Positions 1 through 45,272 of a stretch of 64,000 nucleotides of DNA are shown piece after piece (within the stretch, counting starts at the first letter, position 1; every line of letters begins with the position of its first letter). The position numbers were made by a program, and so were the translations under genes. The notes under the pieces were generated by a model. It did no database searches. It saw only the letters and a list, made by a program, of their open reading frames with translations, and was not told where the DNA came from. The stretch is from the NCBI GenBank assembly GCA_976226885.1, contig OZ320314.1, positions 37,014,001 through 37,078,000 of the forward strand. The letters are read 5' to 3'. Source of the stretch: Iphione sp. A-MEVVRFRX5. Its lineage: Eukaryota.

Positions 1-1
1 T

Positions 2-1279
2 GCACTGCCTGCTGCCTCAAAGGCTCTGTGGAGACAGTGGGACCGCCTCACTATAAGCGATGGGATCCTTCAGAGGAGATGGTATGGACTGGAAACTGGC
101 CCTTCTCGTCTCCAAACGATACTCCCAAGAAAGCGACGCCTGGAGGCTATACAAGAAGTGCACAGCGGACGCACGGGAGGACACCTTTCCGTGGACCGGA
201 CCACCTTCCTGGTGGCGTTAGCATACTACTGGCCAGGTATGCGAAAGGACGTAGAGGCATACTGTCGACGCTGCCACTGTGCACTGTTAAACAGCGATCC
301 CCAGAAACCACAGACTACATTAAGAACCTACCTGGTAGGAGAGCCCATGGAACGATGGTCGATGGATGTTGCTGGTCCACTCCCTGAGACTGCCCGGGGA
401 AATCGCTACGTGTTGATGGTGGGTGACCATTTCACCAAATGGTTGGAGGCGTTTGCGCTGCCGGACCAGAAGGCCTCCCGGGTGGCGACAGTTTTGGCTG
501 AAGAGGTCGTCGCCCGCTATGGGTGTTTCCTAGAGCTACATAGTGACCAAGGCACAAATTTCTGCAGTGAGGTACTTACCGCACTCTGCGACTTCCTTGA
601 CATTAAGAAGACACGCACCACTCCTAGGCACCCTCAAAGCGATGGCTTCATCGAGCGGAGTTTTCGCACCATGGGAAAGATGATTAAGGCCCACTGCTAT
701 GAAGTGGGAGACGAATGGGATGAAGCGCTACCCTACTTAATGATGGCATACCGAGCCTCGCCGCAAGCCAGCACCGGGTACACACCCAACTTTCTAATGT
801 TCGGGCGGGAGGTGGTGCTCCCAGTGCACGCGTTCGCGGGATTCCCGCCTGCGGAGGGAGAGGAGAAGTCACTACCCCACCAGGTAGTGGATGTCGCGCG
901 ACGTCTACAGTCTGCTTATCGTGAAGTGCGGTGCCGCCTCGGCCGGGCCGCTAGAGTGCAGGCGAGAGCGTACGATCGTTGGGTGGAGAAGCGTCCGATG
1001 ACGGAAGGGGACGCTGTCTGGCTACACGAGGCCCAGCCCCCCAGGGGGAAGAGCCCGAAAGTGCATTTCCCATGGACGGGACCGTGGCTGGTAGTGAAGA
1101 AACTGGATGAAGAAAGGATAATCATCAAACGAGCGCGACAGGCGAAACCACGAGTAGTCCACCGGAATCGGGTGCGGACGTACCGGGGGGAGAGTATTCC
1201 CCGGTGGATGCTGGTATGGCGCAAACGCCAGGGAAGTATAGACCAGCCGACAAGGGAGGAAACGACCGCCAGGGGTTAG
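2..1279 (+). CDS. pol: pol C-terminus: integrase (HHCC zinc-binding, rve DDE core, GPY/F-like motif); open from the window edge
   Basis: Frame is open from base 2. HSGRTGGH...CRRC, WSMDVAGP, LHSDQGTNF, IERSFR and PWTGPWLVV are typical Gypsy integrase motifs. Confidence 0.95.
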   Translation, partial: ALPAASKALWRQWDRLTISDGILQRRWYGLETGPSRLQTILPRKRRLEAIQEVHSGRTGGHLSVDRTTFLVALAYYWPGMRKDVEAYCRRCHCALLNSDPQKPQTTLRTYLVGEPMERWSMDVAGPLPETARGNRYVLMVGDHFTKWLEAFALPDQKASRVATVLAEEVVARYGCFLELHSDQGTNFCSEVLTALCDFLDIKKTRTTPRHPQSDGFIERSFRTMGKMIKAHCYEVGDEWDEALPYLMMAYRASPQASTGYTPNFLMFGREVVLPVHAFAGFPPAEGEEKSLPHQVVDVARRLQSAYREVRCRLGRAARVQARAYDRWVEKRPMTEGDAVWLHEAQPPRGKSPKVHFPWTGPWLVVKKLDEERIIIKRARQAKPRVVHRNRVRTYRGESIPRWMLVWRKRQGSIDQPTREETTARG

Positions 1280-1633
1280 AGGACGGAGAGAGAACAAACT
1301 CCAGGAGCAGTCGAATAGCCCGGATGGAGAGGTGAAGTGGATGACCTGATGCTGACGTCAGCATAAAAGAATCCATGGGGAGGACAGATCTCCCGGCGGC
1401 ACTCAAAATCGACTCGTGAGGAGGACGGACCTCCTGGCCCCCTTTAGCGGGGCAAAAAGTCCGTGGGTGGGAGGTGGACCCCAGCCCCACATCGCGGAAA
1501 AAAATCCGGAATGAGCGAAGACGGTGGTATCGGGGGAAGTCCACGAGGGAGACGGGTTCCCTGAAGAGTGCGCGAAAAATCTGTGAAGGGCGACGGGCGC
1601 CCTGGACCTGCTAGGAGATGGAGTTGCGGGAAA

Positions 1634-1771
1634 GGCCAAGCTGGTGGATAGTCCTCTGGAAGGAGGCGTGGAGCCAGGCTGACTGATAGTCCTCTAGAAG
1701 AGGGTGGTGAAGCCAAGCTGGTAGAGTGTCCTCTCGATGAAGTCGAGGAGCCAAGCTGCCCAGCAATCCTC
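1634..1771. repeat. Tandem repeat, ~3.5 units of 38-39 bp
   Basis: Minus-strand units begin GAGGA and share CAGC(T/C)TGGC; unit lengths 38, 39, 38, then a partial unit. Confidence 0.8.
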
Positions 1772-1885
1772 TCGGGGAAGGCGGTGGTAGGAACTATTAC
1801 CAAGAAGGTGTTGATCAATAGTGTAGGAATGTACAAATTTTCCCCCGCCCAAGGAGATATAACAGATGAAGCTATGGATGAAACA

Positions 1886-1891
1886 TTTATT
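1886..1891 (-). terminator. Candidate poly(A) signal of the antisense accessory gene
   Basis: AATAAA on the minus strand ~75 nt after the TGA at 1967-1969. Confidence 0.5.
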
Positions 1892-1966
1892 ACAAGGAAA
1901 CAACGAACTAGGTTCAACAAATGTACAAGCTATTTACATCTGATCCAATCGGGCTGCCCGGATAAG

Positions 1967-2618
1967 TCACCAAGAGGCTCTACGGGGAGAGGCCTCATAA
2001 TCGTCGTCGTCCGATACTACAATGGGAAACCATGTATAGTCCCCGGGAAGGACGCCAGGATAGCAGGCCGCGAGCACATCCGGGGGCCAGGCGGCCAGAG
2101 AAGCCCGTCCGAGAAGAGGTCCCACCTCTGGGGAGGACATAGGAGTCGGACGTGAGGGGGTGTCCACCGGGGTACCCCAATCCATCGGCGAGGGCGATCG
2201 GGGACAGCTGGACGAGGAGAAGGACTCCCATGAATCCGATGACGTGGTGGAGGACCCCCATGAGACGGGGGACGGAGTGCGGAGGTAGTAGAGGGACCAG
2301 GAGTTCCCCTCACGGTCGTCCACACCCTGTTGGGGGGGAACGTCGAAGCTGCCCAAGTAGCGAGCTACCTCATCTACTCCCAGATCGGGCGAGATGGTGT
2401 CACACCGGGGCATCCAGGAAGGTACCGGGAGCGGGACAGGAGGCTCGATGGGCTGGATGGATATGTCGACATAATGAGATGGGCCAAATAGTCGAACTTG
2501 CCCTGGAGCCGGAATGTACAGTGGGCGATTGATCACAGGGTAAAGACCAAACACCCTGATGGTGGGGCCGGGAGTCCCGACATCCACATACCGTAGGAAA
2601 CTGTCTGGAGGAGGGGTG
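1967..2618 (-). CDS. Exon 2 of a predicted spliced antisense accessory gene (Pro/Ser-rich, acidic SIM-like C-terminus)
   Basis: Strong acceptor (T32 tract, then cttctcttcttcttcttgcag; AG at 2620-2619). Frame is open from the acceptor (TPPPDSFLRYVDVGTPG...) to TGA at 1969-1967 and ends ...WFPIVVSDDDDYEASPRRASW. Confidence 0.6.
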
Positions 2619-2639
2619 CTGCAAGAAGAAGAAGAGAAG

Positions 2640-2643
<4 letters not shown>

Positions 2644-2675
<32 letters not shown>
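2644..2675. repeat. A32 homopolymer (T32 on minus strand, inside the predicted antisense intron)
   Basis: Directly visible; lies ~25 nt upstream of the minus-strand acceptor. Confidence 0.95.
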
Positions 2676-2677
<2 letters not shown>

Positions 2678-2837
2678 TATGAAGATATCACAAACACTGT
2701 GCTGGGAAACTTACCTGCTGGAAGGATGAAGATGATCCAACCCTCAACAAGGAGGCCCAACTCAACAGCAAGTGATGAACTCGAGAACTGGCAACAACCA
2801 TTGTGGTGGAGGCCTCCCTTCTGCTCCGGAGACCTAC

Positions 2838-2926
2838 CTGGGTCCTGGAGGGAAACAGCAATCACTCCTCTCAGGCAAGTAAAGGCCATTGTGGGTGAGC
2901 CCAGTGATGTAGTTTGGCAACTCCAT
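2838..2926 (-). CDS. Exon 1 (coding part) of the predicted antisense accessory gene
   Basis: ATG at 2926 (catcATGG), MELPNYITGLTHNGLYLPERSDCCFPPGP, then a phase-2 donor AG/GTAGGT at 2838/2837 that joins exon 2 in frame (246 aa total). Confidence 0.55.
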
Positions 2927-2954
2927 GATGTGCACTGCAGGATGACTGGAGTCA

Positions 2955-2991
2955 GACTGACGCCGCACCCCCGGCCGCTACGGCTTATATA
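2955..2991 (-). promoter_or_regulatory. Core promoter (TATA + Inr) of the antisense accessory gene
   Basis: TATATAA at 2991-2985 and TCAGTC at 2960-2955 on the minus strand, ~33 nt apart, upstream of ATG 2926. Confidence 0.55.
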
Positions 2992-3007
2992 GCGACAGCG
3001 AAGGCTG

Positions 3008-3732
3008 TTCGTGGTACCGCGAAAGCTAGTTGCTGAGTCGCGGACCCACGAGCGGCGAAAACCGAACTCGTGGTGCCACGAGGAAAACATCGACAGCCGG
3101 GAGACAGGCCTAACAGGGAAAACATTGAGGAATTTGGTAATCTACGAATGAAAGGGGGTCGGGGTGCCACGAGGACAGCTCGGGGAGCCACGAGAGAGAT
3201 AAATGCTCGGGGTGCCACGAGTGGCTACACCAGAAGTGGGGAACCAAAACATCCGCCGAGCCTCGTTTGGACTACAGACGCCAGCTAGAAGCCGACAGCG
3301 GAGAGAGAAATTGGCAGCTCGTGCCCCCACGAGTACACTCCTCGAAATGAAGAGTTTACGAAGAAACAGCGAGAAGTAGATGGATTGAAAACACAATCTC
3401 GAGGAAGCAGTCGAAGTACAGTCGTGGTGCCCCGAGTGGAGTTCGTGACACCCCGAGCGTGATCCAGCTCGTGGTACCACGAATCAGAGACGTCGAGATC
3501 GACTGGATTCCACACCAAGTAGGTAGGGGCCCCCGAGTGTGACCAGAGGGGCGAGAGACTCTTTGCCCCCTCTGTTTTCTGCCACTGGGAAAAAGGGGGG
3601 GGTCTCCCCGAGTTGAATCAGAGGTTTCTCCCCGGTGTCAGTTTGTGGTGTTCATCGTGACACCCCGAGCGACAGGTGGGCCTGTGTCAGACGTGGTGCC
3701 CCGAGTGGGAGTGAGTCGGTGGTGCCGCGGGT
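3008..3732. promoter_or_regulatory. Array of >=11 copies of a 16-bp imperfect palindrome (NTCGTGG-NN-CCACGAG type)
   Basis: Copies start at 3008, 3037, 3067, 3158, 3179, 3206, 3318, 3421, 3442, 3468, 3654 and 3690, with degenerate copies near 3522, 3597 and 3717. Spacers are unrelated. Regulatory role is inferred. Confidence 0.75.
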
Positions 3733-3742
3733 CCCATCCAGA

Positions 3743-5512
3743 ATGCCTCGCAGGAAAATTGAAGGAGAGAAGGTAAAGAGGAGGGTTTTGCAGCCCGATG
3801 AACCTAAGCCCCCGGGGACCGTGTTGTGCGAACAGTGTGTGAAGCGACGCCCTTTTCGCCCTGGGGACTCTTTACAGCGCCATATCGAGGAAATCCATCT
3901 GGGGAAGAGGAAACGTGATATGAAATGTTTATTTTGTCCCAGTGTTATAGGTGACGAGCAGTCCTGGGTGGCTCACCAACGAAAATTTCATCCATGGGTG
4001 ACTGATATGGGACTGATTGAGCGACCATATAGGCGGTTATATGACGTGCGACCTGCCACGACAGGGGGTGTGACGGTACCTGACGACGAGATCACCCGGA
4101 TTGTCCTAAGGGCTAGGGAGTTGCGGTCACAAGGTTGGGCCCTAACGCAGGAGGAGGCAGAACATTTGTTGGCAGAGGAGCCCCACAGATCAGCACCTCC
4201 CCTTCCCTCACGGGTAGTTAGATGGGGGACACCGCCAGCCACACCGGCCACCAGGGGGGTCCCCACGATAGACCTCACCAGCCCCCGGAGTTCCCCGAAC
4301 ACCAGCACAGCTTCAGGGCGACAGGTCGTGGACCTCACCTCCCCTGGGGGGTCTCCCGAGTTTGGTGCAACCGCCGGAGTGGGTCCTGTCTGCCAGAAAC
4401 CAGGGGACACTCCCACACCAGGAATGCTACGGGCCGACACTCCAGGGTCCCACGCCGGGGAGCCAAAGGGGGGGGCTTGTGGAAGTCAGAGCGCATCCAT
4501 ACCACAGGATCCACAGGTGGGCGGCTTGGGAGTGACGAGGGCCCCCAGCAGGGGGCAGGGGGATCCTTTCCTCGGCCAAGGTAGTTTTGAGGGGGGGACC
4601 CCTCTCCACCAGGGGATTGCGGGGAGTGGCAGTGAAGCACCCTCCAGCTACCGCTCTGTGTCTGGTTGGCCCCTCACCCCACGGGAAGGCCCTGTGTCGT
4701 GGGATCTATCCGACGCCGCCTCGGTACTGGCTCGTCTCCAGGAGGTGACTGGCTCCGAGGCAGGGAGCCCCCGCCAGACTCCGGAGAGGCCCCCTGCCGT
4801 CTCCACGAGACTACCAGTGGGGCGGCTTTCTCGTCTCATCCAGTCCCTGTTGCCACCGGACCGGGCTGAGCCTGCGGCCGCTCGGGTACATAACATCCTG
4901 GATGGCTTGGTCTCGCCCCACCAGGCCACTACCCGTGCTCCTGCTTCACCCATGAAGATCCGGCTCCCCTCTCAGGTGGTATGGCCACCAAAAACCTGGG
5001 CTCAGCTGAGCCCCGCTAAACGTCTCATGGCCTGTATGGCCATGGCATGGGTCTTACATCTTGTCGAGGAGGAGGATACCGTGCCCGCTACCTTGCTGGG
5101 CCCGCTACAGTGGCGTCCGTATCTGATCCTCCCTGGGCTTGGCATCCCTGAGTTCGAGGACTGGGGGAATTTCGCTGGCCTACTCCATCAACATAACTGG
5201 ACTGTTGAGGCGGCCGAGACGCTCGTACGAGATCTCCAGCCTGGTCTTGCGTGGGATCCCGACTCCGCGATGAATGTTGAGAAGTGGGAGTGGGAAGCAG
5301 TCAACGCGGGGGCCTGCTATGCAGTGGCCCGACCCACCCTAGTCGACATATGCCGGAATGCTCCGGGTAGACAGCGCCGTCTGGGGGAGCAAGACATCTG
5401 GGCGAGTGGTAGCGCCCCAGGTAATGGTACAGGTCCTTTGAGAACACCCAGGCCCTCTGATGTAAGGGAGCTGGAAAAGTCCGGCCCCTCAGTTTGTCAG
5501 AAAGAGCAGTAA
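3743..5512 (+). CDS. Accessory ORF (589 aa from first ATG): two C2H2 zinc fingers, two SIM-like motifs, Pro/Ser/Gly-rich middle, W-rich C-terminal region
   Basis: Uninterrupted ORF; CEQC-x14-HIEEIH and CLFC-x12-HQRKFH; TIDLTSP and VVDLTSP. The ORF track start at 3635 is a GTG; the first ATG is 3743. Confidence 0.8.
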   Translation: MPRRKIEGEKVKRRVLQPDEPKPPGTVLCEQCVKRRPFRPGDSLQRHIEEIHLGKRKRDMKCLFCPSVIGDEQSWVAHQRKFHPWVTDMGLIERPYRRLYDVRPATTGGVTVPDDEITRIVLRARELRSQGWALTQEEAEHLLAEEPHRSAPPLPSRVVRWGTPPATPATRGVPTIDLTSPRSSPNTSTASGRQVVDLTSPGGSPEFGATAGVGPVCQKPGDTPTPGMLRADTPGSHAGEPKGGACGSQSASIPQDPQVGGLGVTRAPSRGQGDPFLGQGSFEGGTPLHQGIAGSGSEAPSSYRSVSGWPLTPREGPVSWDLSDAASVLARLQEVTGSEAGSPRQTPERPPAVSTRLPVGRLSRLIQSLLPPDRAEPAAARVHNILDGLVSPHQATTRAPASPMKIRLPSQVVWPPKTWAQLSPAKRLMACMAMAWVLHLVEEEDTVPATLLGPLQWRPYLILPGLGIPEFEDWGNFAGLLHQHNWTVEAAETLVRDLQPGLAWDPDSAMNVEKWEWEAVNAGACYAVARPTLVDICRNAPGRQRRLGEQDIWASGSAPGNGTGPLRTPRPSDVRELEKSGPSVCQKEQ

Positions 5513-5667
5513 AATTTTGGGTAAAATTTCTTACCTAGTCCATACCTGCTAGCTATGGATGTGGCGTGGTTAGATTGTTGCTGGTGAGTGATCCCTTACC
5601 GTCTGGTAGGGGACCAAGCACCTGACTCAAGGAACCAGAACCACTAGGGACTGTTAATGAGAAGTTA

Positions 5668-6527
5668 GTTACCTTCATTGCTATCTGTGATTAATCGTAT
5701 GCTGTGTGGTAGTAAGTGCACCACGATTGCCATGTCCGGTTAGGACTGCTAAAGATTGTTATCAATGTCACAAGCACTCTATTTGTTACCTTGACCGATT
5801 GCTTCCTCAGATGTTTACGGATTCCTGTTAATGGTGTTTCAAATCAAGTTACCTTGTCTATGCCCTTAAGAGGGTTAGCTGAGTTAGTAAAATGTCTGAA
5901 GGGAAAATTGTATTTCCCCCAAAAAATATAAAAGGTCACTTGGTGAGACTGTTGCTGATGCCATGAGCGCCACACCCGTTACCTTGATCCAACGTTTACC
6001 CAAGATGTTTGTGACTGATTACTGCTGTTAAATATTCGAATCAAGTTACGAAAAGTTGGACGGTTAGAGAAAAGGATCTAGAAGGGAAACTGTATTCCCA
6101 CAAAAAGAAAAGGAAGCTTGCTGTCTGTGATTATTGATCCACCTAACCAGGATAAGTATTTACGTAAGGTTACTGACTGTGATTGAGGATTTTATTGCTA
6201 AGTGTTGAGATTTGTTGATCAGCTGTTGCTCAGGAGAGTTGGACTTGTTACCTTGATTGGCTGTTTACATAGATAGATTAGCCTAGTCCTAAGTCAACTA
6301 CTCTAGGTTGTTATCTTTGCCGTCGGATTGTGTGAGACCAGGGCCACTGTGTACAGTTGGCCACCTAGATTGCTACTGATAATTACTAGAATGAGACATG
6401 GGACCGAGTATATGGCCCAGACAGGTTAGAGTCAGAAGTTGAGAGAAACTAAGAAGGGAAGCTGTATTCCCCCAAAAAGAAAAGACTGTTATTTGTGATA
6501 AGGATTTCTCAGAAGAACTTGTTACCT
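5668..6527. repeat. Dispersed short motifs in the pre-PPT spacer (GTTACCT x6; GAAGGGAA-n-TTCCC-AAAAA x3)
   Basis: GTTACCT at 5668, 5785, 5848, 5978, 6247, 6521; the ~27-bp module at 5898, 6081, 6453. Confidence 0.8.
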
Positions 6528-6651
6528 GTTGGCTACCTGTGATTACCCTATTGGTTACTTAGATGTATGTTACCATGATTGGTTGTTTACCTGAGATAGA
6601 TTTTAGATGACACTAGTTACCCATGCTCATTTTGAGGCGTTGGCATGTTTT

Positions 6652-6664
6652 AAGAAGGGGAGAG
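6652..6664 (+). other. Polypurine tract (PPT)
   Basis: AAGAAGGGGAGAG directly before the TG of the LTR. Confidence 0.85.
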
Positions 6665-7550
6665 TGTAGGGGTGTTCGTGGTACCACCAGCGTAAGGCTA
6701 AGTAAGTCTATTGTATCATATGACGGTTCGTGGTACCACCAGCGTAAGGCTAAGCAAGCCTATTGTATCTTGTAATGGTTCGTGGTACCACCAGTGTAAG
6801 GCTAAGTAAGTCTATCGACAGTTCGTGGCACCACGAGTGTAAGGCTAAGTAAGTCTATTGTATCATATGACGGTTCGTGGTACCACCAGCGTAAGGCTAA
6901 GTAAGTATATCAACAGTTCGTGGCACCACGAGTGATGTGGGATGTACTAGCTGACCTCAGGGAGCCCGTTCGTGGCACCACAAGTGGTTTGTATGCTAAA
7001 AATTTATATCCAGGGTCCCTGGGTAATTAGAAGGTCACCTTGGACCCTGGGGATCCAGGTCATTGCTACTTTGTAACTAGACAGCTATGAGCTGGGTTCC
7101 CTGAACCCTGGGGATCCAGGTCATTGCTACTTTGCATCTAAACAGCTAAGAGCTGATTGGTAGACAGTAATAACACAAGTCAGTTTGTAACCATTTTATT
7201 CCATCATGTGATACATTGTTGCTATGGCAAGTGAACACCTGGTCTTGAGGATTACTATAAATATGGGCCCTGTGTGGCAAATAAACCAGTCTGTACTTGG
7301 ATACCGTTGTGGAACTTGTCTCTTCAGGGGAGTCATTAGGAACACATACCCACTTGGAGTACCATAAGGGAATACTTACCCGATAGTTCTACATTGTGAG
7401 GATCAGGAACAACTAGCCAGGATATATCCACACATAGCTGGAGTTACTTAGAGGAAATATTAACACAGAAGTTACACTGGATTAATTCATTTAGGACTAG
7501 ACACACTATAGTTGGAGTTACCAAGTGGGAGTACAACCACGCTTACTACA
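6665..7550 (+). repeat. 3' LTR (right end either 7393 or 7550)
   Basis: Starts TGTAG; TATAAA 7256-7261, AATAAA 7280-7285; CTACA at 7389-7393 and 7546-7550. The second LTR is not in the window, so the end cannot be confirmed. Confidence 0.75.
6675..6984. repeat. U3 tandem array (52/43-bp periods) carrying 7 copies of TTCGTGG(T/C)ACCAC(C/G/A)AG
   Basis: Copies start at 6675, 6727, 6779, 6822, 6874, 6917, 6969; most are followed by GTAAGGCTAAG. Confidence 0.9.
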
Positions 7551-12437: not shown

Positions 12438-14366
12438 CTAATTGGGCTTGAGTTGGAATTTTGTCAGGCGGGCTGCCCTTTTTCTGACATCCGGTAAGTC
12501 ATTCCACCCCACTGCCGCTCTGTACCTTAGGCTGCGGCCAAATGCCCTGTTCTTTGGCCGATCCACCCTGATTCTGGCCGAATGTCCTCTTCTCGTTTTA
12601 GATGAGTCAGCTAGTGGCAGCAGCCCTAGTCTGACTTGCTGGTGAGTGGCTCGCAAGGCCCTCCAACCCACCAGATCCTCCACCCTTTCTATACCACCTT
12701 TCTCACAAATACGTTTGGCGGACCATGGTGGGTTTATCTGCAGACACATCCTAACGCACCGATTAAGATGTAGCTGCATGTTGCATAACACCGCCTTGGA
12801 ACAGCTGTAAAGCACTACTGCGGCATAGTGCAGATGCGGCATTACAAGTGTTTTAAATAGGTATAACACCGTATGCCATGGCAGCATTTTCTTCACTCTG
12901 GACACTTTCAGCGATGCCGCCCACATTTTGCCTTTCACGTCCTTTAGCATCTCGCGCCCTGTCATCTTGGCATCCAACAGATAACCAAGAAGCCGCACTT
13001 TTGTGCACATTGTGAGGTCTGTCCCATTTACTTTGAGGTCTAATGGTGTACCAGCCGCTTTGCCCAGCGGCATGTAACAGCACTTGCCTTCTGACAGTAG
13101 TAGGCCGTGTTCGTGACACCATTTCGACACTCGGTCCACGCTGTGTTGACATGCCCCTCTTAGCCTAAGCCAGTCATTTGCTTTGACAATTATGGACAAA
13201 TCATCAGCGTAGAGGACGGCATCACAGTAGTTTGGCATGTGCTTGACCAATTCGTCAATCACTATGCTGAAGGCCGCAGGGCCAAATACTGATCCCTGCG
13301 GCACTCCATGCTCGATTTTCCTCAGTGAGGAATTCTGTCCATAGCACCTTACGTACTGTTTTCGATTGTCCAGGTAACTATGAACCAGTCGTCGTATGGC
13401 GCCACTTGCCCCTGCTGTCTCCAGCCTTCTGAGAACCTCCACTGATGGAATGAGGTCAAATGCTTTTCGCATGTCAAAGGCTAAGAGACAACAGTATAAT
13501 CCTGAGTTCATAGTTTCCATTGCTCTATTGATTGTGTAGGTAACGGCTGTCTCTGTGCTTCTCTGGGGTCTGAAGCCATGTTGTCTATCGCTAATGAACT
13601 TTTGCTTGTCAAGCTGTTGCATGACATCAGCAAAGAAACATTTCTCAAAGACTTTCCCGGGTAATGGCAAGATAGACACGGGTCTGTAGTTGCTCATACA
13701 GTTTGTGTCACCACGTTTGTGGAGTGGTGTCACCCATGCTATCTTCCACTTCCCCGGGTACTGTCCACTTTGTATGATGCGGTCGAAGATCCAATGCAGA
13801 AAGTCGAGGTTCAGGAGCAAAAGTTGCTTCATCACCCTTGTCGGTATACCTTCTACACCTGAAGCTTTTTTGATGTTGATTGTTTTGACGAAGGTCCGCA
13901 GTTCCGAAGGAGGCGGCAGAGTGACATCAAACGTAGAAGCACAGCTTGTCACCTGAACATCACCCCTGGCGGTCACCGGCGGTGCTAGGGCTGCTACCTC
14001 ATCAATAAAGAAGTTATTCAACTTCTCCGCGACTGACTCTTCGTGACCATCTCCGGGGTTGTTCTCCTTTGGCAGTTTCATCTGACCTTTGCCGCGCCCC
14101 AGCGCCTTGTTAAGTACCTCCCATGTTTTGGATGAATTCCCCTTCGTCTCCTGCAGTTTCAGCTTCCAGAAGTCCCGCCTGTCGTTTAGCAGTGTGCGTG
14201 CCACCTGTTTATTGAGGTGCTTGAAGATTCGAAATGAATCCACGCACCCATACTTTTTCCATTTTGCGAAAAAGTATTTCTTATCCTTGATCAACTCTAG
14301 TGTCGCATCACTAGGCCGAAACCCGTTGATCCCCTCCTTGACTTTAGTGGTTTTCTCAGGGCACAT
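12438..14366 (-). CDS. LINE ORF2, reverse transcriptase portion
   Basis: YRPVSILP, QHGFRPQRST, FDMRKAFD, GVPQGSVFGP, YADD motifs. Confidence 0.92.
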   Translation of the reverse strand: MCPEKTTKVKEGINGFRPSDATLELIKDKKYFFAKWKKYGCVDSFRIFKHLNKQVARTLLNDRRDFWKLKLQETKGNSSKTWEVLNKALGRGKGQMKLPKENNPGDGHEESVAEKLNNFFIDEVAALAPPVTARGDVQVTSCASTFDVTLPPPSELRTFVKTINIKKASGVEGIPTRVMKQLLLLNLDFLHWIFDRIIQSGQYPGKWKIAWVTPLHKRGDTNCMSNYRPVSILPLPGKVFEKCFFADVMQQLDKQKFISDRQHGFRPQRSTETAVTYTINRAMETMNSGLYCCLLAFDMRKAFDLIPSVEVLRRLETAGASGAIRRLVHSYLDNRKQYVRCYGQNSSLRKIEHGVPQGSVFGPAAFSIVIDELVKHMPNYCDAVLYADDLSIIVKANDWLRLRGACQHSVDRVSKWCHEHGLLLSEGKCCYMPLGKAAGTPLDLKVNGTDLTMCTKVRLLGYLLDAKMTGREMLKDVKGKMWAASLKVSRVKKMLPWHTVLYLFKTLVMPHLHYAAVVLYSCSKAVLCNMQLHLNRCVRMCLQINPPWSAKRICEKGGIERVEDLVGWRALRATHQQVRLGLLPLADSSKTRRGHSARIRVDRPKNRAFGRSLRYRAAVGWNDLPDVRKRAARLTKFQLKPN

Positions 14367-15201
14367 TTCTCCTAGGACTATCCTGGTGCAATTCTCCAGA
14401 TGTTCCCATGATTTCTCGTGGTCCGGGTCCTTTTTCGAAACCGCCCATCTCCAAAACTTCTCTTTGAAGTGCGGCGAGGTCCAGTTTGTTCCACTGTCTA
14501 AATGTCTTCACTTTGTCCACCAGACGATTGCCCCCTTTCTTCAGCACTGCCAGCACTGGTAGGTGATCACTGAGTGTCCAATCCAGAACGTCGCAGGCCA
14601 ATCTGCCTGCGTAATTGACCCATATTTGGTCAATCACGCGGTCAGAGTCTAGCGTAGTACCCTTCCTGATCAGCTGAGTGAATCCATTGCTGACAAGCAG
14701 ATCCACTAGACTGACCCCAGCCTTTTCTCCTCCCATGAAGTTGAAGTTGAAATATCCAGCTATAGTCACGTCGCATCTGTGTAAGGTTTTGATAAGTTGG
14801 ATAGTTTTATCAAATTCCTTGATACTATCCTTGATTCGATCATGTGGTGGCCGATACACACCAAACACTGCATGTTTTCTTCTCTTGCTGATTTTCAGCA
14901 AGACCCCCAGGAATTCACTCTCACCATGTTCCGGGCTTGTGCAAAATTCCCGTATAATGTCAATGGTTTTTTTCAGATAGATCACAATCCCCCCACCCTT
15001 GGACTTCTTTGCATTCTGTCTATCTTGTCTTACCTGTTGGTAACCCGGAACTTTAATCCCCCCATCTAGATGTGACTCATTGAGCCATGACTCCGTGATT
15101 ATACAGATGTCTACGTCTTGTTCACGGAGACATATCTCCAGGGCGTCTACCTTAGAACGTAGACTTCTTATGTTATATGCAACCAATGTTACTCCTTTCA
15201 T
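14356..15201 (-). CDS. LINE ORF2, APE endonuclease portion (separated from RT by a 1-nt frameshift near 14431-14435)
   Basis: AYNIRSL, ITESWL, GGGIVIY, GVYRPP, IDQIW, SDHLPV. Removing one A from GAAAAAG restores ...EKDPDHEKSWEHLENCTRIVLGEMCPE. Confidence 0.88.
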   Translation of the reverse strand: MKGVTLVAYNIRSLRSKVDALEICLREQDVDICIITESWLNESHLDGGIKVPGYQQVRQDRQNAKKSKGGGIVIYLKKTIDIIREFCTSPEHGESEFLGVLLKISKRRKHAVFGVYRPPHDRIKDSIKEFDKTIQLIKTLHRCDVTIAGYFNFNFMGGEKAGVSLVDLLVSNGFTQLIRKGTTLDSDRVIDQIWVNYAGRLACDVLDWTLSDHLPVLAVLKKGGNRLVDKVKTFRQWNKLDLAALQREVLEMGGFEKGPGPREIMGTSGELHQDSPRRNVP

Positions 15202-15874
15202 TATGTTAAGGTTGTGTAAGCACCCCCGAGCTCACTGCCATATACATGTTACACCTCATCACACAACCACACCCACTTTCATCACACATCTTGTACTCAC
15301 TTTCAGCCTTGCAGAGTCATAGTTGTCTTATTGACATACACCTGCACCTCCATCTACAAATTGTAGTCACCAGCAAAGCATACACTGTGACATCCATACC
15401 ACACCAAGCGGCGATGTAAGTGGTGCATTAATAAAAAGAACTTTATTCACTTTAGACTATAGAGTGGAGACAATCACTGGACCTAGAACGACATGAAGGA
15501 ACCGCACGTAAGTTGTAAGTATGGCCTTAGCAAATGTAGTCACAAGGTTATAAATTGCGTGGTTCAACTGGAATATTACAGCATGTAACTAGCAAGGTCA
15601 GTGATATTACAACACAACTATAGTTAACTATTTCAGAAATAACCAGTATTCTAAAGATCACCAGCTACCAGTTCAATCTCGATTATTGTCATTACCCATG
15701 GCCTATGATCATGGTAGAATAACCTGACTACCTCAACAGCGTGTTTGGATTGAGATCAGTTACTAAGTGCATATACAATGTACTAAGAACGACCGAAGGC
15801 ATAAATAATCAACAATTACAATAAATAGTAACAGATAAATACAAAAACATACATATACCAGGAATTTAAGAATT

Positions 15875-17413
15875 TTAAGACTTCTTGAAAAATGTGTCTA
15901 TGGTTGGCTGGACCACCTTTCTTGATAGAACTCTGGAGGAGTGGGCCTGCTGTAGTGGTACCAACAGATCCAAACATTCAATGTCGCCTTTGATGAGGAA
16001 ATGCTTCCTCATTTTCAAGAACATTTCCTGAATCTCTGGGTCACTGAGCTCACTGCCCTCTTCCTGTTTCTCCTCTGTCGGCTCTTCCTCCTCTTCCTCA
16101 ACCTCATCAGGGGCCCAATCTTCCTCATCGGGACTGTGAGTGCAGAGTTCATCATCAAGGCTCTCATACTCTGTGTGGGTCATTCTGGATTCCTCTGGGA
16201 TGCCCTCCTGGATTTTTGTGAGGAGGGAGATGAGAGGTTCATCATCAAGTTCAGGAGGACACGACACACGTTCAGCATCATCAGGAACTGGCCTAACCCC
16301 TGATCTTATGAAGCATGACTCCACTGTGGTTGGTTTTACTGCTTTTACTGCAGAATTCAACCAGCCCACTACCAGCTGCATATCCACTGTGCCCACAGCA
16401 GCCCTGGCGTCGATGGAACCATCCAGCCTTGAAACGACGTACTGTAGCAGTGATTTCTTGTAGTGTAATTTTACTGCCTGGATGATGCCCTGGTCTAATG
16501 GCTGGAGAACAGATGTGGCATTTAGTGGCAGAAACACAACTTTAGTGTTAGACAGGTTGATTCCCCCAGGATGAGAAGGGGCATTTATTAAGCACACTTT
16601 TCTCCCTTGAGCTGCCATTTTCCGATTGAAAGAGTGTAGCCACTCCTCGAAAATGGTCGTTGTCATCCATGCTTTCTTGTTATGGCGCCATGTCACGGGC
16701 AGCGATGACATATCCTTCAGATTGCGCCAACAGCGAGGTCGTGCAGCTTTGCCAATAACCAATGTCTTCTGAAACTCACCAAGGGCATTCACACAGAACA
16801 TCGCTGTGATCTGCTCCTTGGATTTTTTACTGGCAGAGACGTCTGTACCCCTGACACTCAAAGTCCTATCTGGTAATGCCCTGTAAAAGATGCCGGATTC
16901 ATCGACATTAAAAATGTCTCTTGGACCATATCCCTCGAGGATGGTGGGTAGACGCTCCAGCCATTCTTGAACTGTGACTTCATCAACTGATGATTTCTCA
17001 CCAACCACCTTGAATGCTCCAATACAGTGACGTTTTTTGAATTTCGTGAGCCATCCTGTAGATCCCTTGAAGTCATCCATACCAAGCTCTTTGGCTATAG
17101 CCAAGGCCCTGGTACAGAGCATAGGCCCTGAAACCGGTACATTCAAAGCACGAATCCGAGAAAACCATGAAAAAACTCTCTCATCGAGTGTAGAGGAGTT
17201 TGTGGAGAGGCAACGACGCTTTGCTGTTGGATCAGCACAGTGCTCAAAGTCATTCAGAATTTCTGCTTTTCTCTTCAAGATGCAGCCGACTTGAGTTTTC
17301 CCCACTCCGAATTGCTCTGCAAGCTGTCTCAAGCTACGACTTGGACTGTTCTTGATAATCTGAACCTTCTCACGAAGAGTCAGATCTCTCCTCTTGGTCT
17401 TGGTCACAGGCAT
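15875..17413 (-). CDS. pogo/Tigger (CENP-B-like) transposase, 512 aa from ATG 17413
   Basis: N-terminal HTH (LTLREKVQII...LAEQFGVGKTQV), second HTH (FKGSTGWLTKFKKRH), DDE-type core (IFNVDESG, WMTT, LQPLDQGII), acidic tail, C-terminal QPTIDTFF. Confidence 0.92.
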   Translation of the reverse strand: MPVTKTKRRDLTLREKVQIIKNSPSRSLRQLAEQFGVGKTQVGCILKRKAEILNDFEHCADPTAKRRCLSTNSSTLDERVFSWFSRIRALNVPVSGPMLCTRALAIAKELGMDDFKGSTGWLTKFKKRHCIGAFKVVGEKSSVDEVTVQEWLERLPTILEGYGPRDIFNVDESGIFYRALPDRTLSVRGTDVSASKKSKEQITAMFCVNALGEFQKTLVIGKAARPRCWRNLKDMSSLPVTWRHNKKAWMTTTIFEEWLHSFNRKMAAQGRKVCLINAPSHPGGINLSNTKVVFLPLNATSVLQPLDQGIIQAVKLHYKKSLLQYVVSRLDGSIDARAAVGTVDMQLVVGWLNSAVKAVKPTTVESCFIRSGVRPVPDDAERVSCPPELDDEPLISLLTKIQEGIPEESRMTHTEYESLDDELCTHSPDEEDWAPDEVEEEEEEPTEEKQEEGSELSDPEIQEMFLKMRKHFLIKGDIECLDLLVPLQQAHSSRVLSRKVVQPTIDTFFKKS

Positions 17414-17745
17414 GTTGTCGTTTCTGCATTCGTCTTGAGAATGATTCCCTCCAGTACAGACGCCTGCTTTTGTATGCTCCTGGAGGCTCCCCAAGTGAGT
17501 AGGCGTCAATTGCAATCAGGAACATGTGAGAACATCAGAGGCATTCAACTCCCTTTGACCCTTTGAGTCGCTCAAAGGTGATGAATATAACCGTTAGTCT
17601 ACGCTAAATCAAAGCGACACCTGCTCTTTGGGGGCCTCGGGGATGCTGATAGGTGTAAAATTTGCGCGGCCAACTGAAAACTTATTTGTCTTCACCCGGG
17701 GGGTGCGCTACTGTCGCCGTCCACAGGCAGACGTTCTCTAAAATT

Positions 17746-17874: not shown

Positions 17875-19131
17875 TAGACATGATATATTTTTTTGCTCAA
17901 ACTGTATTTGTTTCGTTCAGGCATTCAGGGTTGTGTTGTATTCTTATGATGATGGACTTGCGATTGTATTTTCTTGGGTTTTCATCAGTTCCTCCAAGCT
18001 TGTATTCCTAATGAGTTGCTTTTGCTTGAAATCTCTCCAACCTGGAGACCTCTTCACCGTAATTAACGACTATTAGGAAAAGGATAAAGTAACCATCCTT
18101 CTTAAAACAAGTTTTATTTCCTAGTTGAGAAGTTCATAGACCTTTCAAAGCCGCAGAGGCCGGGCGTTTCTACATGGGAGCTCTCTAATAGAAGAAATTT
18201 TATTTCATCACTGTAGCCTGCCCACCAACCTCTCACTAGTAGACCTCGCAACGCAAGGATCCTGTCTTTCTGTTTCTCTATCACTATTACTGAAGCATAC
18301 ATCCACCACAAGACCAACCCAGTTAAGAGAGCAACCTTTGATACACATAACGATCTAAACAGAAGCAAACACTAACATCCACATTATTTTACCAACATTC
18401 TAAGGAGATTAATTCAAGAGAGCCCCACATTGGCTTGTCCCAAGGGTTGAAAGAACGTATAAGTACTGTGCTATTTAAAACAATGGAATAGTATTGGGAG
18501 AGAATACGAAAATGAAGGCCGAAATATTAAAGTTTTGCTCAGTAGATAATATATGATAAAGTTTGACAAACATGCATGTTGGGGCATAGATAAACATTTA
18601 ACTGAACTAAGATGTTTGCAAGTACTTTTCTGAAATGTTGCAGATCCACACTTATTTGTGTGTTTGTATAAACCTGGGCCTACAGGTGAAGGGCTGGGTG
18701 TGCTGGATGATGTTTGCTGACTCATCTCCTGAAATGTCATATATGACATCACTTAGGGTTTCCTCTTTCATATCTTTATCTTGCGAATGATGCACCGACA
18801 TGTTTTCCCACAGGTAATACACCATGTCAGAAAACGGTCCTAAGAAGGACAACTTTTGTTTTGGTGGTACCAGATAATTTCAGTACATTTTCTCTAGTGT
18901 CAGTTTCATTCGAATTTTTGGCAAGGTTTATCAAATCAATATAAGTCGACTTTATGGTGAGATAAAAGATTATATGGATCTTTAAAGCATCTCTCATCTC
19001 TATTTAGAACCCATGTTATAGGGATACGTATAATTTAATTGAAAAAGTACCTAGAATACATTACACCAGCAAGGGTGAGTTGCTAGCATAACAACATACT
19101 GTATAAACTGCAAGGAGGGTATAGAACGAAT

Positions 19132-20415
19132 AGATCAACTACCGATATTGTCTGTAATTTAACAGACTATATTAAGAATTCAGTATCAAACAAAGAAACA
19201 TGTCTAGTATGTTTTTTAGACCTCAGGAAAGCATTCGATACAGTGGATCATAAGATCCTATTGGAAAAGTTAGCATTGTTAAACTTTTCAAATAGTGCAA
19301 TTTCCTTGATTTCTAGTTATTTATCTGGTAGAGAACAATATACAATCAATGGACAATTTGTATCTAACAAAGTAGGAGTGACAAAAGGGGTACCACAAGG
19401 ATCTGTTTTAGGTCCAATTTTGTTTAGTTTGTATGTGAATGATTTGCCTGAATGTGTGGATGGTTTAGGAAAAGTATATATGTTTGCGGATGATACTGCA
19501 ATAGTGACACACAATACTGATCCTAACAAAGCCATTGAAGATATGAACGCATTGCTAACAAAAGTTATTGAATGGTTACAATATCATCGGTTACAAATAA
19601 ATGTTAAAAAAACCCAATATATGGTTTTTACCAACAAGGATAAATCCTGTAAGGATAGGATGGACAAAGTTAATATTTTGGGAACAGAATTAGAGCAAGT
19701 TGGTACTTACAAATATTTGGGCTTATGGCTTGATGACAAGTTTAACTTTAATTATCACACAAGGGAAGTCATTAAGAAAATTGCAAAATCTGGATCTTGT
19801 CTAACTAGAATGGCCCCTTTGTTAAATTATCAACAACTTTTATTATTGTATAAAACTACCGTGTCCCCTATTTCTGATTACATGGACTTGATTTGGTGTA
19901 TGTCTAGTAAGGCTAATGCTAACAAGGTTTTAATTTCACAAAATAAACTACTAAAGAAATTATTTCATTTAGACAAGTATACAAGGACAAACGAACTTTA
20001 TAAGAACTTAGGATTATTAAATGTACTACAAAGAACATATTTACATATCCTAACAAGAGGTTATAGAGCACTTAGAAGGATTTTACCTGATTTTGAGCAA
20101 GAAAATTATAATCAGAGAAACCTGGATTTAAATTTGAGGAACAATGCAAGAACAAGTTTTTCTATTAAATATTACAAGAATGCCTTACAATGTAAGATGA
20201 CAACAAATATAGTTGCAAATAGTTGGAATAACTGTAAACTACCATTGGATGATGGACTTGAACCCTCAGAGTTCAAAAGGGAAACTGCAAGATTTATTTT
20301 TGACAATGGTTGATCTGTAACACTGTAACTAACAAATCTTAGCATATGCATAAGAAAAGCGAATTTTATGTTCGATTATGTATATGTTGCATTCAGAAAT
20401 AAATAAATAAAAAAT
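19132..20415 (+). mobile_element. 5'-truncated CR1-group LINE (RT C-terminal half, stop at 20313, AAAT-type tail)
   Basis: RSTTD...FLDLRKAFDTVDH, GVPQGSVLGPILF, FADD, YKYLG; tail of AAAT repeats at ~20397-20415. Confidence 0.9.
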
Positions 20416-24366: not shown

Positions 24367-27343
24367 TTAAGTGCCTTTTGCTCTTCGCAAACAGCCATCA
24401 GTTCCCAAGTGGGAGGAATGTATCTTCTCCTTCAACGTCTGGTGCTCACTCTTTGGAATGACGATCCTCTCACCCCTAAAGACTAGTCCATCATGGACTG
24501 CCATTTCATCACTCATGGAGTAGTATGGGTGCACAATTGGTGGGGCCTGTGCTTTCTCACTGGGCCATCCTTCCAGGATGACCTGCTTAAGGGCAGTCAT
24601 TGTCGGATCGACCTCGGTTGCCTTCCGTATTGCCTCAATTCGGGATTCTGTCATGGCAACATACTTGGTTGCATTGACATTCTCAAACTCTTCATGTCGT
24701 CCTTCCGTAGTCTGTCGATAAGCTCGAGATAGGGTGTCTCTTTGCCGGGAGTATAGGAGACGGTCACCTCATACTGCTGCAGCCTCATCAGCATGCCTTG
24801 TAGGCGCTTTGGTGCATTTGCCAAAGACTTCTTCATGATGTTCTGCAGTGGTTTGTGATCTGACATCACACTGACAGAGCGGCCAAATGTGTATTGGTGA
24901 AACTTCTCTGCACTCCACACTATTGCTAACATCTCCTTCTCGATTTGGGCGTATCGAACTTCTGTATCTGTGAGGGCTCGGCTTGCAAATGCTATCGGCT
25001 GACCCTCCTGCAGAAGAGCTGCGCCCAGTCCAGTCTTGCTCGCATCACATTGGATAGTGAGTTCCTTCTTGGGATCGTAATAACGGAGGACTGGCGCCTC
25101 ACTCACTAGCCTCTTCACTTGTCTCAGTGCCTTGTCTTGCGCACCGGCCCCATTCCATGGGACATCTTTCCTCGTCAGTTGTCTGATCGGCTCCATGGCA
25201 TCAGACAGTCTAGGTAGGAACCTTGCGAGGTAGTTAACGAATCCATTCAGGCGTTGCACACCCTCCACATCGCTCGGTTGCTGCATCTGTTTCACAGCCT
25301 CCACTTTTGCAGGGTCCGGCTTCAGGCCTTCACTCGTGATCAGATGTCCTAGAAATGTTACTGACTTCTGTCTTAACTTCATTTTCTCTGCATTCAGTCG
25401 TATACCGACATCCTGACATCTCTGCAACAGCTGTACAAGCTTGCGATCATGGTCCTTGCTGGATTCCTCTTCTGTCTGGCCTTTACCGTAGACCATCAGA
25501 TCATCAGCCACACATATCACACCCTCTAAATCCTGGATGCAGCTGTGTAGCTTCCTGGCAAAGATCTCTGATGATACGCTTGTCCCGAAAGGCAATCTCA
25601 ACCATCGGTATTGGCCATGTGGGGTGGCAAAAGTAGTCAGGTATGATGACTCTTCGTCCAGCATCACATGCCAGTATCCGGACTTCAGGTCCATGGTGGA
25701 GATGATCTTTGCCTCGGATAACTCTGGGAGCACATCATTCAATGTGCAGAGCGGGAAATGCTTCCTCTTCAGTGCCTTGTTCAAGGGTCCGGGATCAATG
25801 CAGATCCGCAGGTCACCGTTTTTCTTTGTTGCAACGACCATGGCACTCACCCATTCTGTCGGCTCTTGCACAGGCTTGATCACCCCTTTTGTTATCAGAG
25901 AGTCAAGTTCAGCCTTGATCCTGTGCCTTAATGCCACTGGCATGCGCCTACATGGAGACACTGTAGGGGTCACAGTGGTGTCCACGCGTAGCGTCGCAGT
26001 GCCAGGTAGATTCCCAATTGTGTCTTCAAAAACGTCTTCATATTTCTTTTCACTGCCGCAACCCTCTCAAAATTCTCCGTGTTCACTGAGATGAGGCCCA
26101 TCTTCTGGCTTGCGGATACTCCGAGGACTGGCATGAGGTTGTCATCTTCCACCACCACAAATTTGACAGAGTGCTGGTCATTGCTCACAGGGTTAATGAC
26201 CTCTAGGATGCACTCCCCGATCGGATGCTTCAGGCTCCTGTCCCACATCTCCAGTGTGCTTGTTGGCGGATCAAGCTTAGCCTTCTTGACATGCTTGAGT
26301 GGAATGAGGTTCACTGATGCACCAGAGTCTACTTGGAACTTGACTGGTTTTCCAGCCACTGTCATCTTTGCATAGATGAGTTTTTTTAGACGGCCCTTCA
26401 CACTGTTGACCTTGCTCACTCCATTTATTTCATATTCATCACTGTCGGTTTCTTCAGAGTCTTCCTGATCTACGGCATTCACTTTCTTCTTGCTCTTCTT
26501 GCACACAACAGCAAAGTGGTTTCGTCCGCCGCAATCATTGCACTGGCTCCCCCAGGCTGGACATGACTCCTTCTTGTACTCATGTTTCTGGCCACAGAAC
26601 TTGCAGGTTCTGCTCTTCCGGCTCTTTGGTTTGTCCTTGTCTACCTTCCCTGATCCCTTCTCGCGCTTTGACTTTGGCTTTGGTTTCGACCTTGGCCTCA
26701 CACCATGGACTTCATCTCCTCCCTTGGTGTTCATCTGTTTCATCTTGGCCCCTGCAGCTTCATTCGCTCGGCAGATGTCAATGCAGCGGTTTAGGGTAAG
26801 GTCCTGTATCTCCAGTAGCTTTTTTCGGGTCTCGTCGTCTCGGATCCCCATCACGAGTCGATCACGTAGAAGTGTGTCGGTCAGGCAGTCACAAAAGTTA
26901 CAACTTTTTCTCAGGTAGCGCAAAGCTGTGACGTAGGCATCAAAGTTCTCATCCGTGGCCTGCTGTCTTCCGTTGAACTTGTATCATTCATATGTCTCGT
27001 TCAGTTGCCCGATGATATGCTGATCAAACTTTGCTATTATCTGCTGTACCGTGCGATCGTCTTCATTGGCTTCGTCCTTGAATGCAAACCCGTTATACAC
27101 ACGCAATGCCTCGGGTCCGATTGAGTTCAAAAACATTGCGGTTTGATATTTTCTCTGTTGTGTGTCTAAATTGGAGATTATGGCATAGTTTCTCCACTGC
27201 TGTTTCCACAGGTTCCAATTTTCGACTTTCCCAGCCTGTAAATCTAGGTGCCCTGGGGCCTTTATCCCTGGTATGAATTTGGCATGTGCTGCTTCAGCAC
27301 CTCCGGCCCTGGCTCCCTCTCCTTGCTCCTGGTTCCCCGGCAT
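24367..27343 (-). pseudogene. gag-pol pseudogene
   Basis: ORF pieces 26984-27343, 25970-26923, 24651-25985 and 24367-24654 join into one polyprotein once the stop and frameshifts are corrected. Confidence 0.88.
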
Positions 27344-27656
27344 GGCAACTTACTTACTCACTGACCGTGGTTTGTATTGTGACTAACGGGCACAACTGAC
27401 TAACCAGTGCTGGCTTGGTAAATACAGGTAAAACTTCTGTCTAGCTGTTTTAACAGGGAATAATAATCGTGGAACCCTCTCTCAGGGTGGCAGTTACACA
27501 GTAGAGTTACTCTTCTCGGGATAGGAGCTGGGTTGAGCACATGGCATGGCTTCTGGCTTCAGGCCCTCTGCCACACAACAGCCTTTCCTCACTCTCTTAA
27601 CAGAAGAAATAGAAAAAGCTTCCTACTCACAGTTTCTTCATGCCCTTCCCAGTCCT

Positions 27657-40772: not shown

Positions 40773-40802
40773 CTTCGTTTCGTTTATATGGTAGACTTCC
40801 AT
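40773..40802 (-). CDS. Micro-exon 7 of repeat peptide precursor: DGSLPYKRNE
   Basis: tttcag|ATGGAAGTCTACCATATAAACGAAACGAAG|gtgagg; 30 nt, phase 1-1. Confidence 0.85.
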
Positions 40803-41522: not shown

Positions 41523-41552
41523 CTTCATTTCTTCTGTATGGAATATGCCCAT
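41523..41552 (-). CDS. Micro-exon 6: DGHIPYRRNE
   Basis: cttccag|ATGGGCATATTCCATACAGAAGAAATGAAG|gtaaag; 30 nt, phase 1-1. Confidence 0.85.
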
Positions 41553-42639: not shown

Positions 42640-42860
42640 CTGCACAAATGTGTCATTTTTTTGCACTTTCTCCCAGAAATTCGCCATTTTTTTGCACTTT
42701 CTCCATGGAATTTGCTGCAATCTCCATGAAATAGCTGTTTCTCTGCACTTTCTCCCTGAAATCTACCATTTTTTGGCCCATTCTCTATGGAATTTGGCAC
42801 AATTTCCATGAAACAGCAGTTTTTCTGCCTTTTATCCAAGAAGTTTGCTATTTTTTCATA
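42640..42860. repeat. Degenerate minisatellite (TTTTGCACTTTCTCC-containing units)
   Basis: Several imperfect copies of TGCACTTTCTCC and TGGAATTTG visible. Confidence 0.55.
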
Positions 42861-45242: not shown

Positions 45243-45272
45243 CTTCGTTTCTCTTGTATGGCGTTTGGCTCT
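45243..45272 (-). CDS. Micro-exon 5: ESQTPYKRNE
   Basis: ctttccag|AGAGCCAAACGCCATACAAGAGAAACGAAG|gtaaga; 30 nt, phase 1-1. Confidence 0.85.

Follow-up and report, generated by a model that had tools for sequence, protein, structure and literature searches.

In the general view, LTR retrotransposons rely on factors of the host for their transcription, and self-encoded DNA-binding transactivators are known from complex retroviruses. The locus described here raises the question of which protein, if any, reads a dyad motif that is repeated in the LTR of a retrotransposon and again around the start of one of its accessory genes. Candidate protein and candidate site lie in one locus, and the question is therefore testable.

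The element and two clusters of one dyad

The window, by which we mean the whole 64-kb stretch of DNA analysed, begins inside an integrase, directly after which pol ends; relatives have RT_RNaseH ahead of the integrase. Pfam matches in this 3′ part of pol were to Integrase_H2C2 (E 1e-16) and rve (E 1e-13). The protein has the HHCC zinc-binding part and the DDE core and is related to Gypsy integrases, its named relatives being those of fish, bivalves, a crab and echinoderms and the closest integrases, which lack surrounding DNA, having 45–50% identity. After an interval of 5.4 kb from the integrase, a polypurine tract and then a TG...CA LTR with TATA box and poly(A) signal are all present. The element is to all appearance an animal Ty3/gypsy LTR retrotransposon (Metaviridae). 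Its 5′ half falls outside the window, and no second LTR copy was found in the 64 kb; the right end of the single LTR copy is ambiguous, with CTACA at 7393 or 7550. The features used below are as follows.

2–1279, plus strand: 3′ part of pol, Ty3/gypsy-type integrase, open for 425 codons (Pfam, named relatives)
1886–1891, minus strand: AATAAA poly(A) signal of a predicted antisense gene, the only AATAAA or ATTAAA on the minus strand in 1280–3010
1967–2618, minus strand: predicted antisense exon 2, Ser/Pro-rich, of no family (224-codon frame, acceptor 2619 with a long pyrimidine tract)
2838–2926, minus strand: coding part of predicted antisense exon 1, first ATG 2926 to donor CAG/GTAGGT 2837 (splice phase)
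2955–2991, minus strand: putative antisense core promoter, TATATAA at 2991–2985 and TCAGTC at 2960, the latter presumably Inr-like (sequence)
3008–3705, no strand: dispersed cluster of 12 dyads TCG(T/G)GG-NN-CC(A/C)CGA, putative bidirectional internal promoter (motif scan)
3743–5512, plus strand: accessory ORF of 589 aa (ORF analysis, Pfam, profile)
5513–6651, plus strand: long AT-rich 3′ UTR with a different, degenerate repeat set (repeat analysis, motif scan)
6652–6664, plus strand: polypurine tract, 13 nt (sequence)
6665–7393, plus strand: 3′ LTR, TGTAG...CTACA, alternative end 7550 (sequence)
6675–6984, plus strand: U3 array of seven dyad motifs (pattern matching, TRF, spacer alignment)
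7038–7155, plus strand: second U3 duplication, 2 × 57 nt with period 61, each with the dyad CCTGG-N4-CCAGG (repeat-family analysis)
7256–7291, plus strand: putative LTR core promoter with TATAAA 7256, AATAAA 7280 and CAGTC 7287, which we take to be Inr-like (sequence)

The initial annotation had described the U3 array as seven copies with 52/43-bp periods that start 10 bp inside the LTR and stop about 270 bp upstream of its TATA box. All of this was confirmed. Exact matches to TTCGTGGYACCACVAG were found at 6675, 6727, 6779, 6822, 6874, 6917 and 6969 (n = 7), with successive spacings of 52, 52, 43, 52, 43 and 52 bp, and TRF gave periods of 52, 43 and 95 bp. The array begins 10 nt inside the LTR because the LTR starts at TGTAG 6665, after the purine tract; from its end to TATAAA 7256 we measured 271 nt. 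With up to 2 mismatches there were 15 strand-matches in the window (shuffle mean 0.08, maximum 1 in 100), all confined to 3008–3483 or 6675–6984.

It had further been proposed that the same motif links the LTR to the accessory region about 3 kb away and that such a recurrence is unlikely by chance. We used the three distinct LTR 16-mers alone as the query, with up to 4 mismatches, and found 12 copies in 2991–3742, a region delimited after the hits had been seen, though bounded by the antisense TATA and the sense ATG; shuffled sequence gave a mean of 0.20 and a maximum of 3 in 200. None was found at this threshold elsewhere in the element (1–2990, 3743–5512, 5513–6664 and 6985–7393), and the 56.6 kb of flank held 0 at ≤2, 1 at ≤3 and 5 at ≤4 mismatches. 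The internal copies lie at 3008, 3037, 3067, 3158, 3179, 3206, 3318, 3421, 3442, 3468, 3654 and 3690, and their cluster ends about 3.0 kb upstream of the U3 array. The proposed link is thus strongly supported. For a word common to the internal region and U3 of this element, p was 0.003; at the sequence level, a candidate response element shared by the LTR U3 and the internal promoter region is present.

The internal cluster sits between two divergent accessory genes, with a minus-strand TATA and Inr on one side and a plus-strand ATG on the other. The internal promoter region appears to be putatively bidirectional, with TATA and Inr on the minus strand; no plus-strand TATA was found ahead of the ATG at 3743.

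Other repeats accompany these clusters. Between the U3 array and the TATA box, the CCTGG...CCAGG dyad forms a family of three copies (7010–7155), two of them inside the 57-nt duplication. The 3′ UTR (5513–6651) has no copy of the array dyad. All 10 GTTAC(C/T) words of 1–7393 fall there, as does a small hairpin, GGGAA-N-TGTATTCCC, in two or three copies (5898, 6084 and 6456) within degenerate 372/462-bp repeats; the hairpin is a possible RNA signal. Neither Rfam nor tRNA scanning gave a match in the window. The flank contains other mobile elements (12438–15231, 15875–17515, 19087–20313 and 24367–27349), namely two LINE fragments, a Tigger/pogo-type transposase ORF and a second, frameshifted Gypsy on the minus strand. 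Six similar 44-nt exon ends with splice donors at 40765–50100 (minus strand) are apparently repeated exons of a host gene.

Origin of the copies and nature of the site

The seven U3 copies are not seven independent sites, because spacers 1–5 are homologous, with 21–35 identical nt; spacers 1 and 4 differ by a single base. Units 1–5 are tandem duplicates, built of 52/43-bp units in a 95-bp higher-order repeat. Spacer 6, which copy 7 follows, is 36 nt long like spacer 1 and is unrelated to it (58% of 2000 shuffles align equally well). The array therefore amounts to about three independent sites, at spacings of 52, 43 and 52 bp, plus tandem duplication. Every U3 spacing lies within 0.1 turn of whole 10.5-bp turns, that of the unrelated sixth spacer included; calculated post hoc, the chance of such helical phasing is ~0.01 with three independent spacings or ~0.05 with two. 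The internal cluster, unlike the LTR array, is not helically phased. Phasing and the position in U3 fit the putative enhancer-like role for which the array had been named.

The arms differ between the clusters. In U3, the left arm is perfect in 7/7 copies, both arms are perfect (TCGTGG-NN-CCACGA) in 2/7, and the remaining 5/7 have one right-arm mismatch and lack a base that is invariant among the internal copies; this loss could reflect decay. Among the internal arms (n = 24), positions 2, 3 and 5 are invariant, position 4 varies in 9/24 and the flanks are free. The variation of the arms is like that of a protein site.

These observations bear on whether the LTR array might be a minisatellite that expanded neutrally from one or two sites, in which case its link to the internal cluster would go back to an old duplication and most of the LTR copies would be dispensable. 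The recent duplication of units 1–5 with its 95-bp higher-order repeat would be expected of such an array, as would the damaged arm in 5/7 copies, and no excess conservation of motif over spacer was measurable within the tandem units (variable sites 2/16 vs 4/21, p 0.68, in a test of low power). Against this origin, there is no homology outside the motif, either between the clusters (with motifs masked, the best match of the internal region to the LTR has E 1.1) or among the internal copies, where only 2/66 pairs reach 9/16 identical flank bases. The absence of homology between the masked regions also led us to reject the internal cluster as a captured LTR. Copy 7 stands after an unrelated spacer of identical length, no left arm is damaged, and the motif is confined to two promoter-like regions. 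We give a neutral origin a low probability.

A self-complementary motif could also act in RNA, as a hairpin, in dimerisation or packaging of the genome, or as a small-RNA signal of the kind proposed for Sirevirus elements in the accessible text of PMC4728375. Both clusters lie within the full-length RNA, and the internal cluster folds far better than its shuffles (z −6.8). This signal was mostly removed, however, when the spacers were shuffled and the motifs kept (z −1.3, 2/40 as good), and for the LTR array, folding did not stand out from that of shuffled sequence (z −1.5, 7/100 as good). Read as hairpins, the 19 copies contain 17 broken pairs and one wobble, with 0 compensatory changes. On these three grounds we rejected a selected RNA structure. 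Pairs broken without compensation, together with the fold results, are what a dyad bound by protein in double-stranded DNA would show, and helical phasing also favours double-stranded DNA over RNA. A function in RNA is therefore improbable.

Together, these data make it probable that the dyad is a protein-binding site through which the LTR and the internal promoter are co-regulated. The RNA-level and neutral readings fit worse than binding by the element's own protein or by a host factor.

Accessory genes and the candidate binder

The sense accessory ORF encodes a basic N-terminus, two C2H2-type fingers (aa 29–83), a Pro/Ser/Thr/Gly-rich low-complexity middle and a hydrophobic C-terminal domain (aa 401–545); two I/V-D-L-T motifs in the middle part are, we assume, SIM-like. 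A frame as long as its 589 aa was seen in 0/1000 shuffles. The fingers are tandem, of the form C-x2-C...H-x3/4-H, and resemble solved DNA-binding fingers; with the window sequence alone, the nearest structures were ZBTB17 (E 0.009) and CTCF (E 0.05), and the Pfam C2H2 score lies under the curated cut-off. As we read it, the residues with which the second finger would contact bases are atypical, and a pair of fingers can specify only a short site. AlphaFold models were of low confidence, with pLDDT of 43 (single-sequence, window finger protein) and 42. A word-index search with aa 1–150 gave no homologue at E ≤ 0.001, and among 1.84 billion representatives there were five weak matches (E 2.5e-6 to 1e-3), confined to the fingers. 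Atlas matches of the finger protein were unnamed or generic C2H2 proteins of low recognition, and aa 400–560 had none.

The divergent neighbour is a predicted spliced antisense gene. Its first ATG has a strong context (A at −3, G at +4), and this ATG and the first donor are in phase with exon 2 to give 246 aa, with the stop at 1967; four other combinations give 30–101 aa. The length of the exon 2 frame is weak evidence by itself (32/1000 shuffles as long), and the exon has no Pfam match and no relatives. An alternative donor, GTAAGT at 2714, directly follows a pyrimidine tract and CAG (2709–2730, minus strand) and resembles a recursive splice site; its use would yield a different antisense product. 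The 32-nt A run at 2644–2675 would be the poly-T part of the pyrimidine tract of the antisense intron, not a retroposon tail. Just past the pol stop is a TGACGTCA palindrome followed by CATAAAA (1351–1370), and a 38-bp × 3.2 tandem repeat (1635–1758) and a 167-codon plus-strand frame without family match (1652–2155) lie farther on; these are possibly a further accessory unit.

For comparison, we scanned genome contigs with the integrase alignment and obtained 25 loci (L001–L025) from 71 candidate stretches. These are presumably eukaryotic retrotransposon contigs filed in bacterial assemblies; such records are contamination, yet a usable source of context. Of the 24/25 loci analysed, 19 had at least 1 kb after the integrase. 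A plus-strand C2H2 ORF within about 1 kb after the integrase was found in 7/19 (L001, L006, L007, L009, L011, L015 and L021), L004, L008, L017 and L022 pass almost straight to a short LTR, and 8/19 have neither. Four of the finger ORFs end in an oligomerisation-type module: a BTB domain at the end of the ORF region in L011 (E 9.5e-19, across an assembly gap), zipper-like coiled coils in L007 and L009 (weak Pfam hits) and a probable coiled coil in L006 (weak hit, by eye). Among 120 relatives, no integrase tail was found with a finger.

A profile of the seven relatives' finger pairs ranked the window ORF first of 3894 non-training ORFs (E 1.4e-5), and the next was a DNA-transposon-like ORF (E 2.6e-4). 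The finger ORF L008:308–1096 was rejected as a family member on account of its neighbouring ORFs, which we take to be EnSpm/DNA-transposon-like; a similar two-finger N-terminus is present in an unrelated DNA-transposon-like ORF. The eight-sequence finger profile matches classical fingers such as those of CTCF and ZBTB, with 208 PDB sequences at E ≤ 0.01, down to 4e-21. On the integrase tree (35 rows), the elements with fingers are spread over several subclades; the tree does not show one common origin for the finger ORF, though it is compatible with one (2 changes, 27/500 shuffles as low).

The relatives have repeats of their own. The window dyad is absent from all 25 loci, and four accessory segments of the window gave no tblastn hit in 24 of them. 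A significantly repeated U3 word was found in 3/6 finger-bearing relatives with a visible LTR (GGGATT ×7 with a period of about 10–11 bp in L006, TCACGT ×5 in L011, AAGGT ×6 in L021; none in L001, L009 and L015) and in 0/3 simple LTRs tested, of which L017 was borderline (0.050) and from which L022 was left out. The power of this U3 test is lower because U3 is truncated in L009 and L021 and the simple LTRs are shorter. In an unbiased 10-mer test, the window and L006 alone had clear repeats in U3. Of the five testable relatives, one, L001, has a motif common to its internal region and its U3 (ACTCGG, p 0.003), and this top hexamer has 22 occurrences over the whole 7.2-kb locus; none was found in L006, L009, L011 and L021 (p 0.08–0.25).

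L001 also has the clearest TATA-type internal promoter among the relatives, a CCAAT/E-box/TATA arrangement (CCAAT/CACGTG/TATA) ahead of its finger ORF. In L011 and L015 there are splice acceptors just ahead of the fingers, so many finger ORFs may be expressed from spliced LTR transcripts and need no internal promoter. Other features of these loci deserve mention. L011 combines C2H2 finger(s), a tandem Lys/Pro/Val/Ser repeat and a KCTD-type BTB domain (2175–3666) with a putative 2.2-kb LTR. In L001 (2100–6346), a 329-codon finger ORF overlaps a 735-codon frame, and the LTR is followed directly by primer-binding site and gag, as in a tandem or circularly permuted contig. In L009 (900–2170) and L021 (700–1920), the stretch from 5′ LTR to gag contains a number of short frames resembling coiled coils and a second sequence that is similar to a primer-binding site.

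Which protein would bind the dyad can be considered with these data. We favour the element's own two-finger C2H2 protein, because two fingers and a putative dimerisation domain suit a dyad of 6-bp arms and because the motif is private to this family and lies around the start of the protein's own gene. Several of the observations above weigh against this choice: the unusual second finger and the short specificity, the lack of a plus-strand TATA before the ORF, the splice acceptors of L011 and L015, the scarcity of shared motifs among the relatives, the two-finger N-terminus in an unrelated ORF, the motif's conservation being no better than that of the spacers, and the damaged right arms in U3. 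That this protein binds the dyad in a loop like that of foamy virus Tas is a tentative proposal, to which we give a probability just short of even.

In that case, the array would serve as a regulatory block in the upstream part of this Ty3/gypsy LTR. A dimeric DNA-binding protein, most likely the C2H2 protein of 3743–5512, would occupy its dyads as well as the 12 that separate the two accessory genes, and each subunit would recognise one 6-bp arm. Basal activity of the internal region would make the finger protein, which would feed back on its own intact internal sites and, as it accumulates, fill the weaker, in-phase LTR sites and switch full-length transcription. Tandem duplication, perhaps by polymerase slippage or template switching, would have amplified two or three initial sites. 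Promoter activity, binding, dimerisation, the order of activation and the sign of the effect (activation, anti-silencing or repression) are all steps that we infer.

A host transcription or insulator factor might bind the dyad instead. Both the LTR and the internal promoter would recruit it to have their expression matched to a tissue or stage, and the finger protein would have another role. Host binding of repeats in U3 has a parallel in the TCACGT/CACGTG of L011, which we take to be an E-box bound by host factors. The right arms of the dyad, CACNAG, presumably resemble an N-box, and TCGTG/CGTGG is found within the arms. None of the 12 internal copies has lost CGTG from both arms (chance 0.09), and 4/5 relatives have no shared internal/U3 motif despite a finger ORF. 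By contrast, G or C at position 4 in 9/24 internal arms breaks CGTG/CACNAG with the two-arm geometry kept, and the motif is nearly absent from the host flank and absent from the related loci, as given above.

Drosophila gypsy, too, has 12 degenerate copies of a motif next to its 5′ LTR, and these are sites for the host protein Su(Hw) (PMC4935592, in the part available). Unlike the proposed binder here, Su(Hw) is host-encoded; its consensus, YRYTGCATAYYY, is non-palindromic and has no resemblance to the dyad, and by this direct comparison we did not identify the clusters with the gypsy insulator. On balance, binding by a host factor is a serious alternative, somewhat less probable than binding by the element's own protein.

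Comparison with known systems

The closest functional parallel to binding by the element's own protein is in foamy viruses. According to the accessible text of PMC10410575 and PMC12789967, these have two promoters, one in the LTR and an internal one that drives accessory genes adjoining the 3′ LTR, and Tas (Bel-1) binds elements in both. The present element is similar in its putative LTR and internal promoters with a shared motif and in its accessory genes near the 3′ LTR. It differs in being a Ty3/gypsy element in which no env-like ORF was found, in having as candidate regulator a C2H2 protein with no detected likeness to Tas, and in an apparently bidirectional internal region whose putative sites, with those of the LTR, are 12 + 7 copies of one dyad. 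A spumaretroviral genome was not recognised, as the post-integrase ORFs scanned with Pfam gave no env or Tas family match and the integrase relatives are Gypsy.

Arrays of symmetrical motifs are also found in the cis-regulatory part of Sirevirus LTRs, where their number changes; Sireviruses are plant Copia elements, and the arrays are read as hairpin and siRNA hotspots in the available part of PMC4728375. Here, unlike in Sireviruses, the array folds poorly and the motif recurs at an internal accessory-gene region; with a Gypsy-type animal integrase and an array fold z of −1.5, the region was not classed as a Sirevirus LTR palindrome region. Retand, a plant Ty3/gypsy element, has a long region between pol and 3′ LTR with antisense ORFs and family-specific tandem repeats, and a regulatory DNA-binding role has been proposed (PMC11963269, in the part available). 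In contrast to Retand with its TRP28 domain, this is an animal element in which the sense ORF is of C2H2 type, the antisense gene is predicted to be spliced and the LTR has a motif in common with the internal region. Membership in Retand was not supported: the antisense ORFs scanned contain no Pfam family, and the named relatives are animal.

Among animal LTR elements, bdelloid ORF3s, planarian Burro and the env of errantiviruses provide examples of a family-specific, often spliced ORF after pol; the ORF3 types given in the accessible text are env, GDSL, DEDDy and coiled-coil or transmembrane proteins (PMC5408684, PMC6431247, PMC13524379). The term zinc finger has no match in the available parts of PMC5408684 and PMC13524379. 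In the literature surveyed, most of it by title or start of abstract and outside Repbase, Dfam, GyDB and subscription journals, we found no description of a post-integrase C2H2 ORF in animal Gypsy elements; nor, in papers judged mostly in the same way, did we find a motif common to the LTR and internal promoter of an animal Gypsy. Repeats arrayed in U3 and palindromes in LTRs have been described before, as the accessible part of PMC4728375 attests, and the array alone is ordinary. What appears to be new is the coupling of the array to a putatively bidirectional internal region and to a recurrent zinc-finger gene apparently encoded by the elements.

A broader reading is that these elements form an undescribed, widespread animal Ty3/gypsy group with its own dimeric two-finger C2H2 regulator encoded after the integrase and co-evolving with a private LTR motif, which in the present element would be shared with a bidirectional internal promoter. 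This would be an independent two-step switch like that of foamy viruses, and the regulator may also counter SUMO-dependent silencing. We regard this as speculative, with the probability against it. If a host factor binds the dyad, the locus would have an ordinary LTR enhancer array and an unexplained recurrent zinc-finger accessory gene. If the elements' own proteins bind instead, they could also act on solo LTRs across the host genome, and families of these elements could have private self-recognition codes, providing compact, orthogonal pairs of regulator and site.
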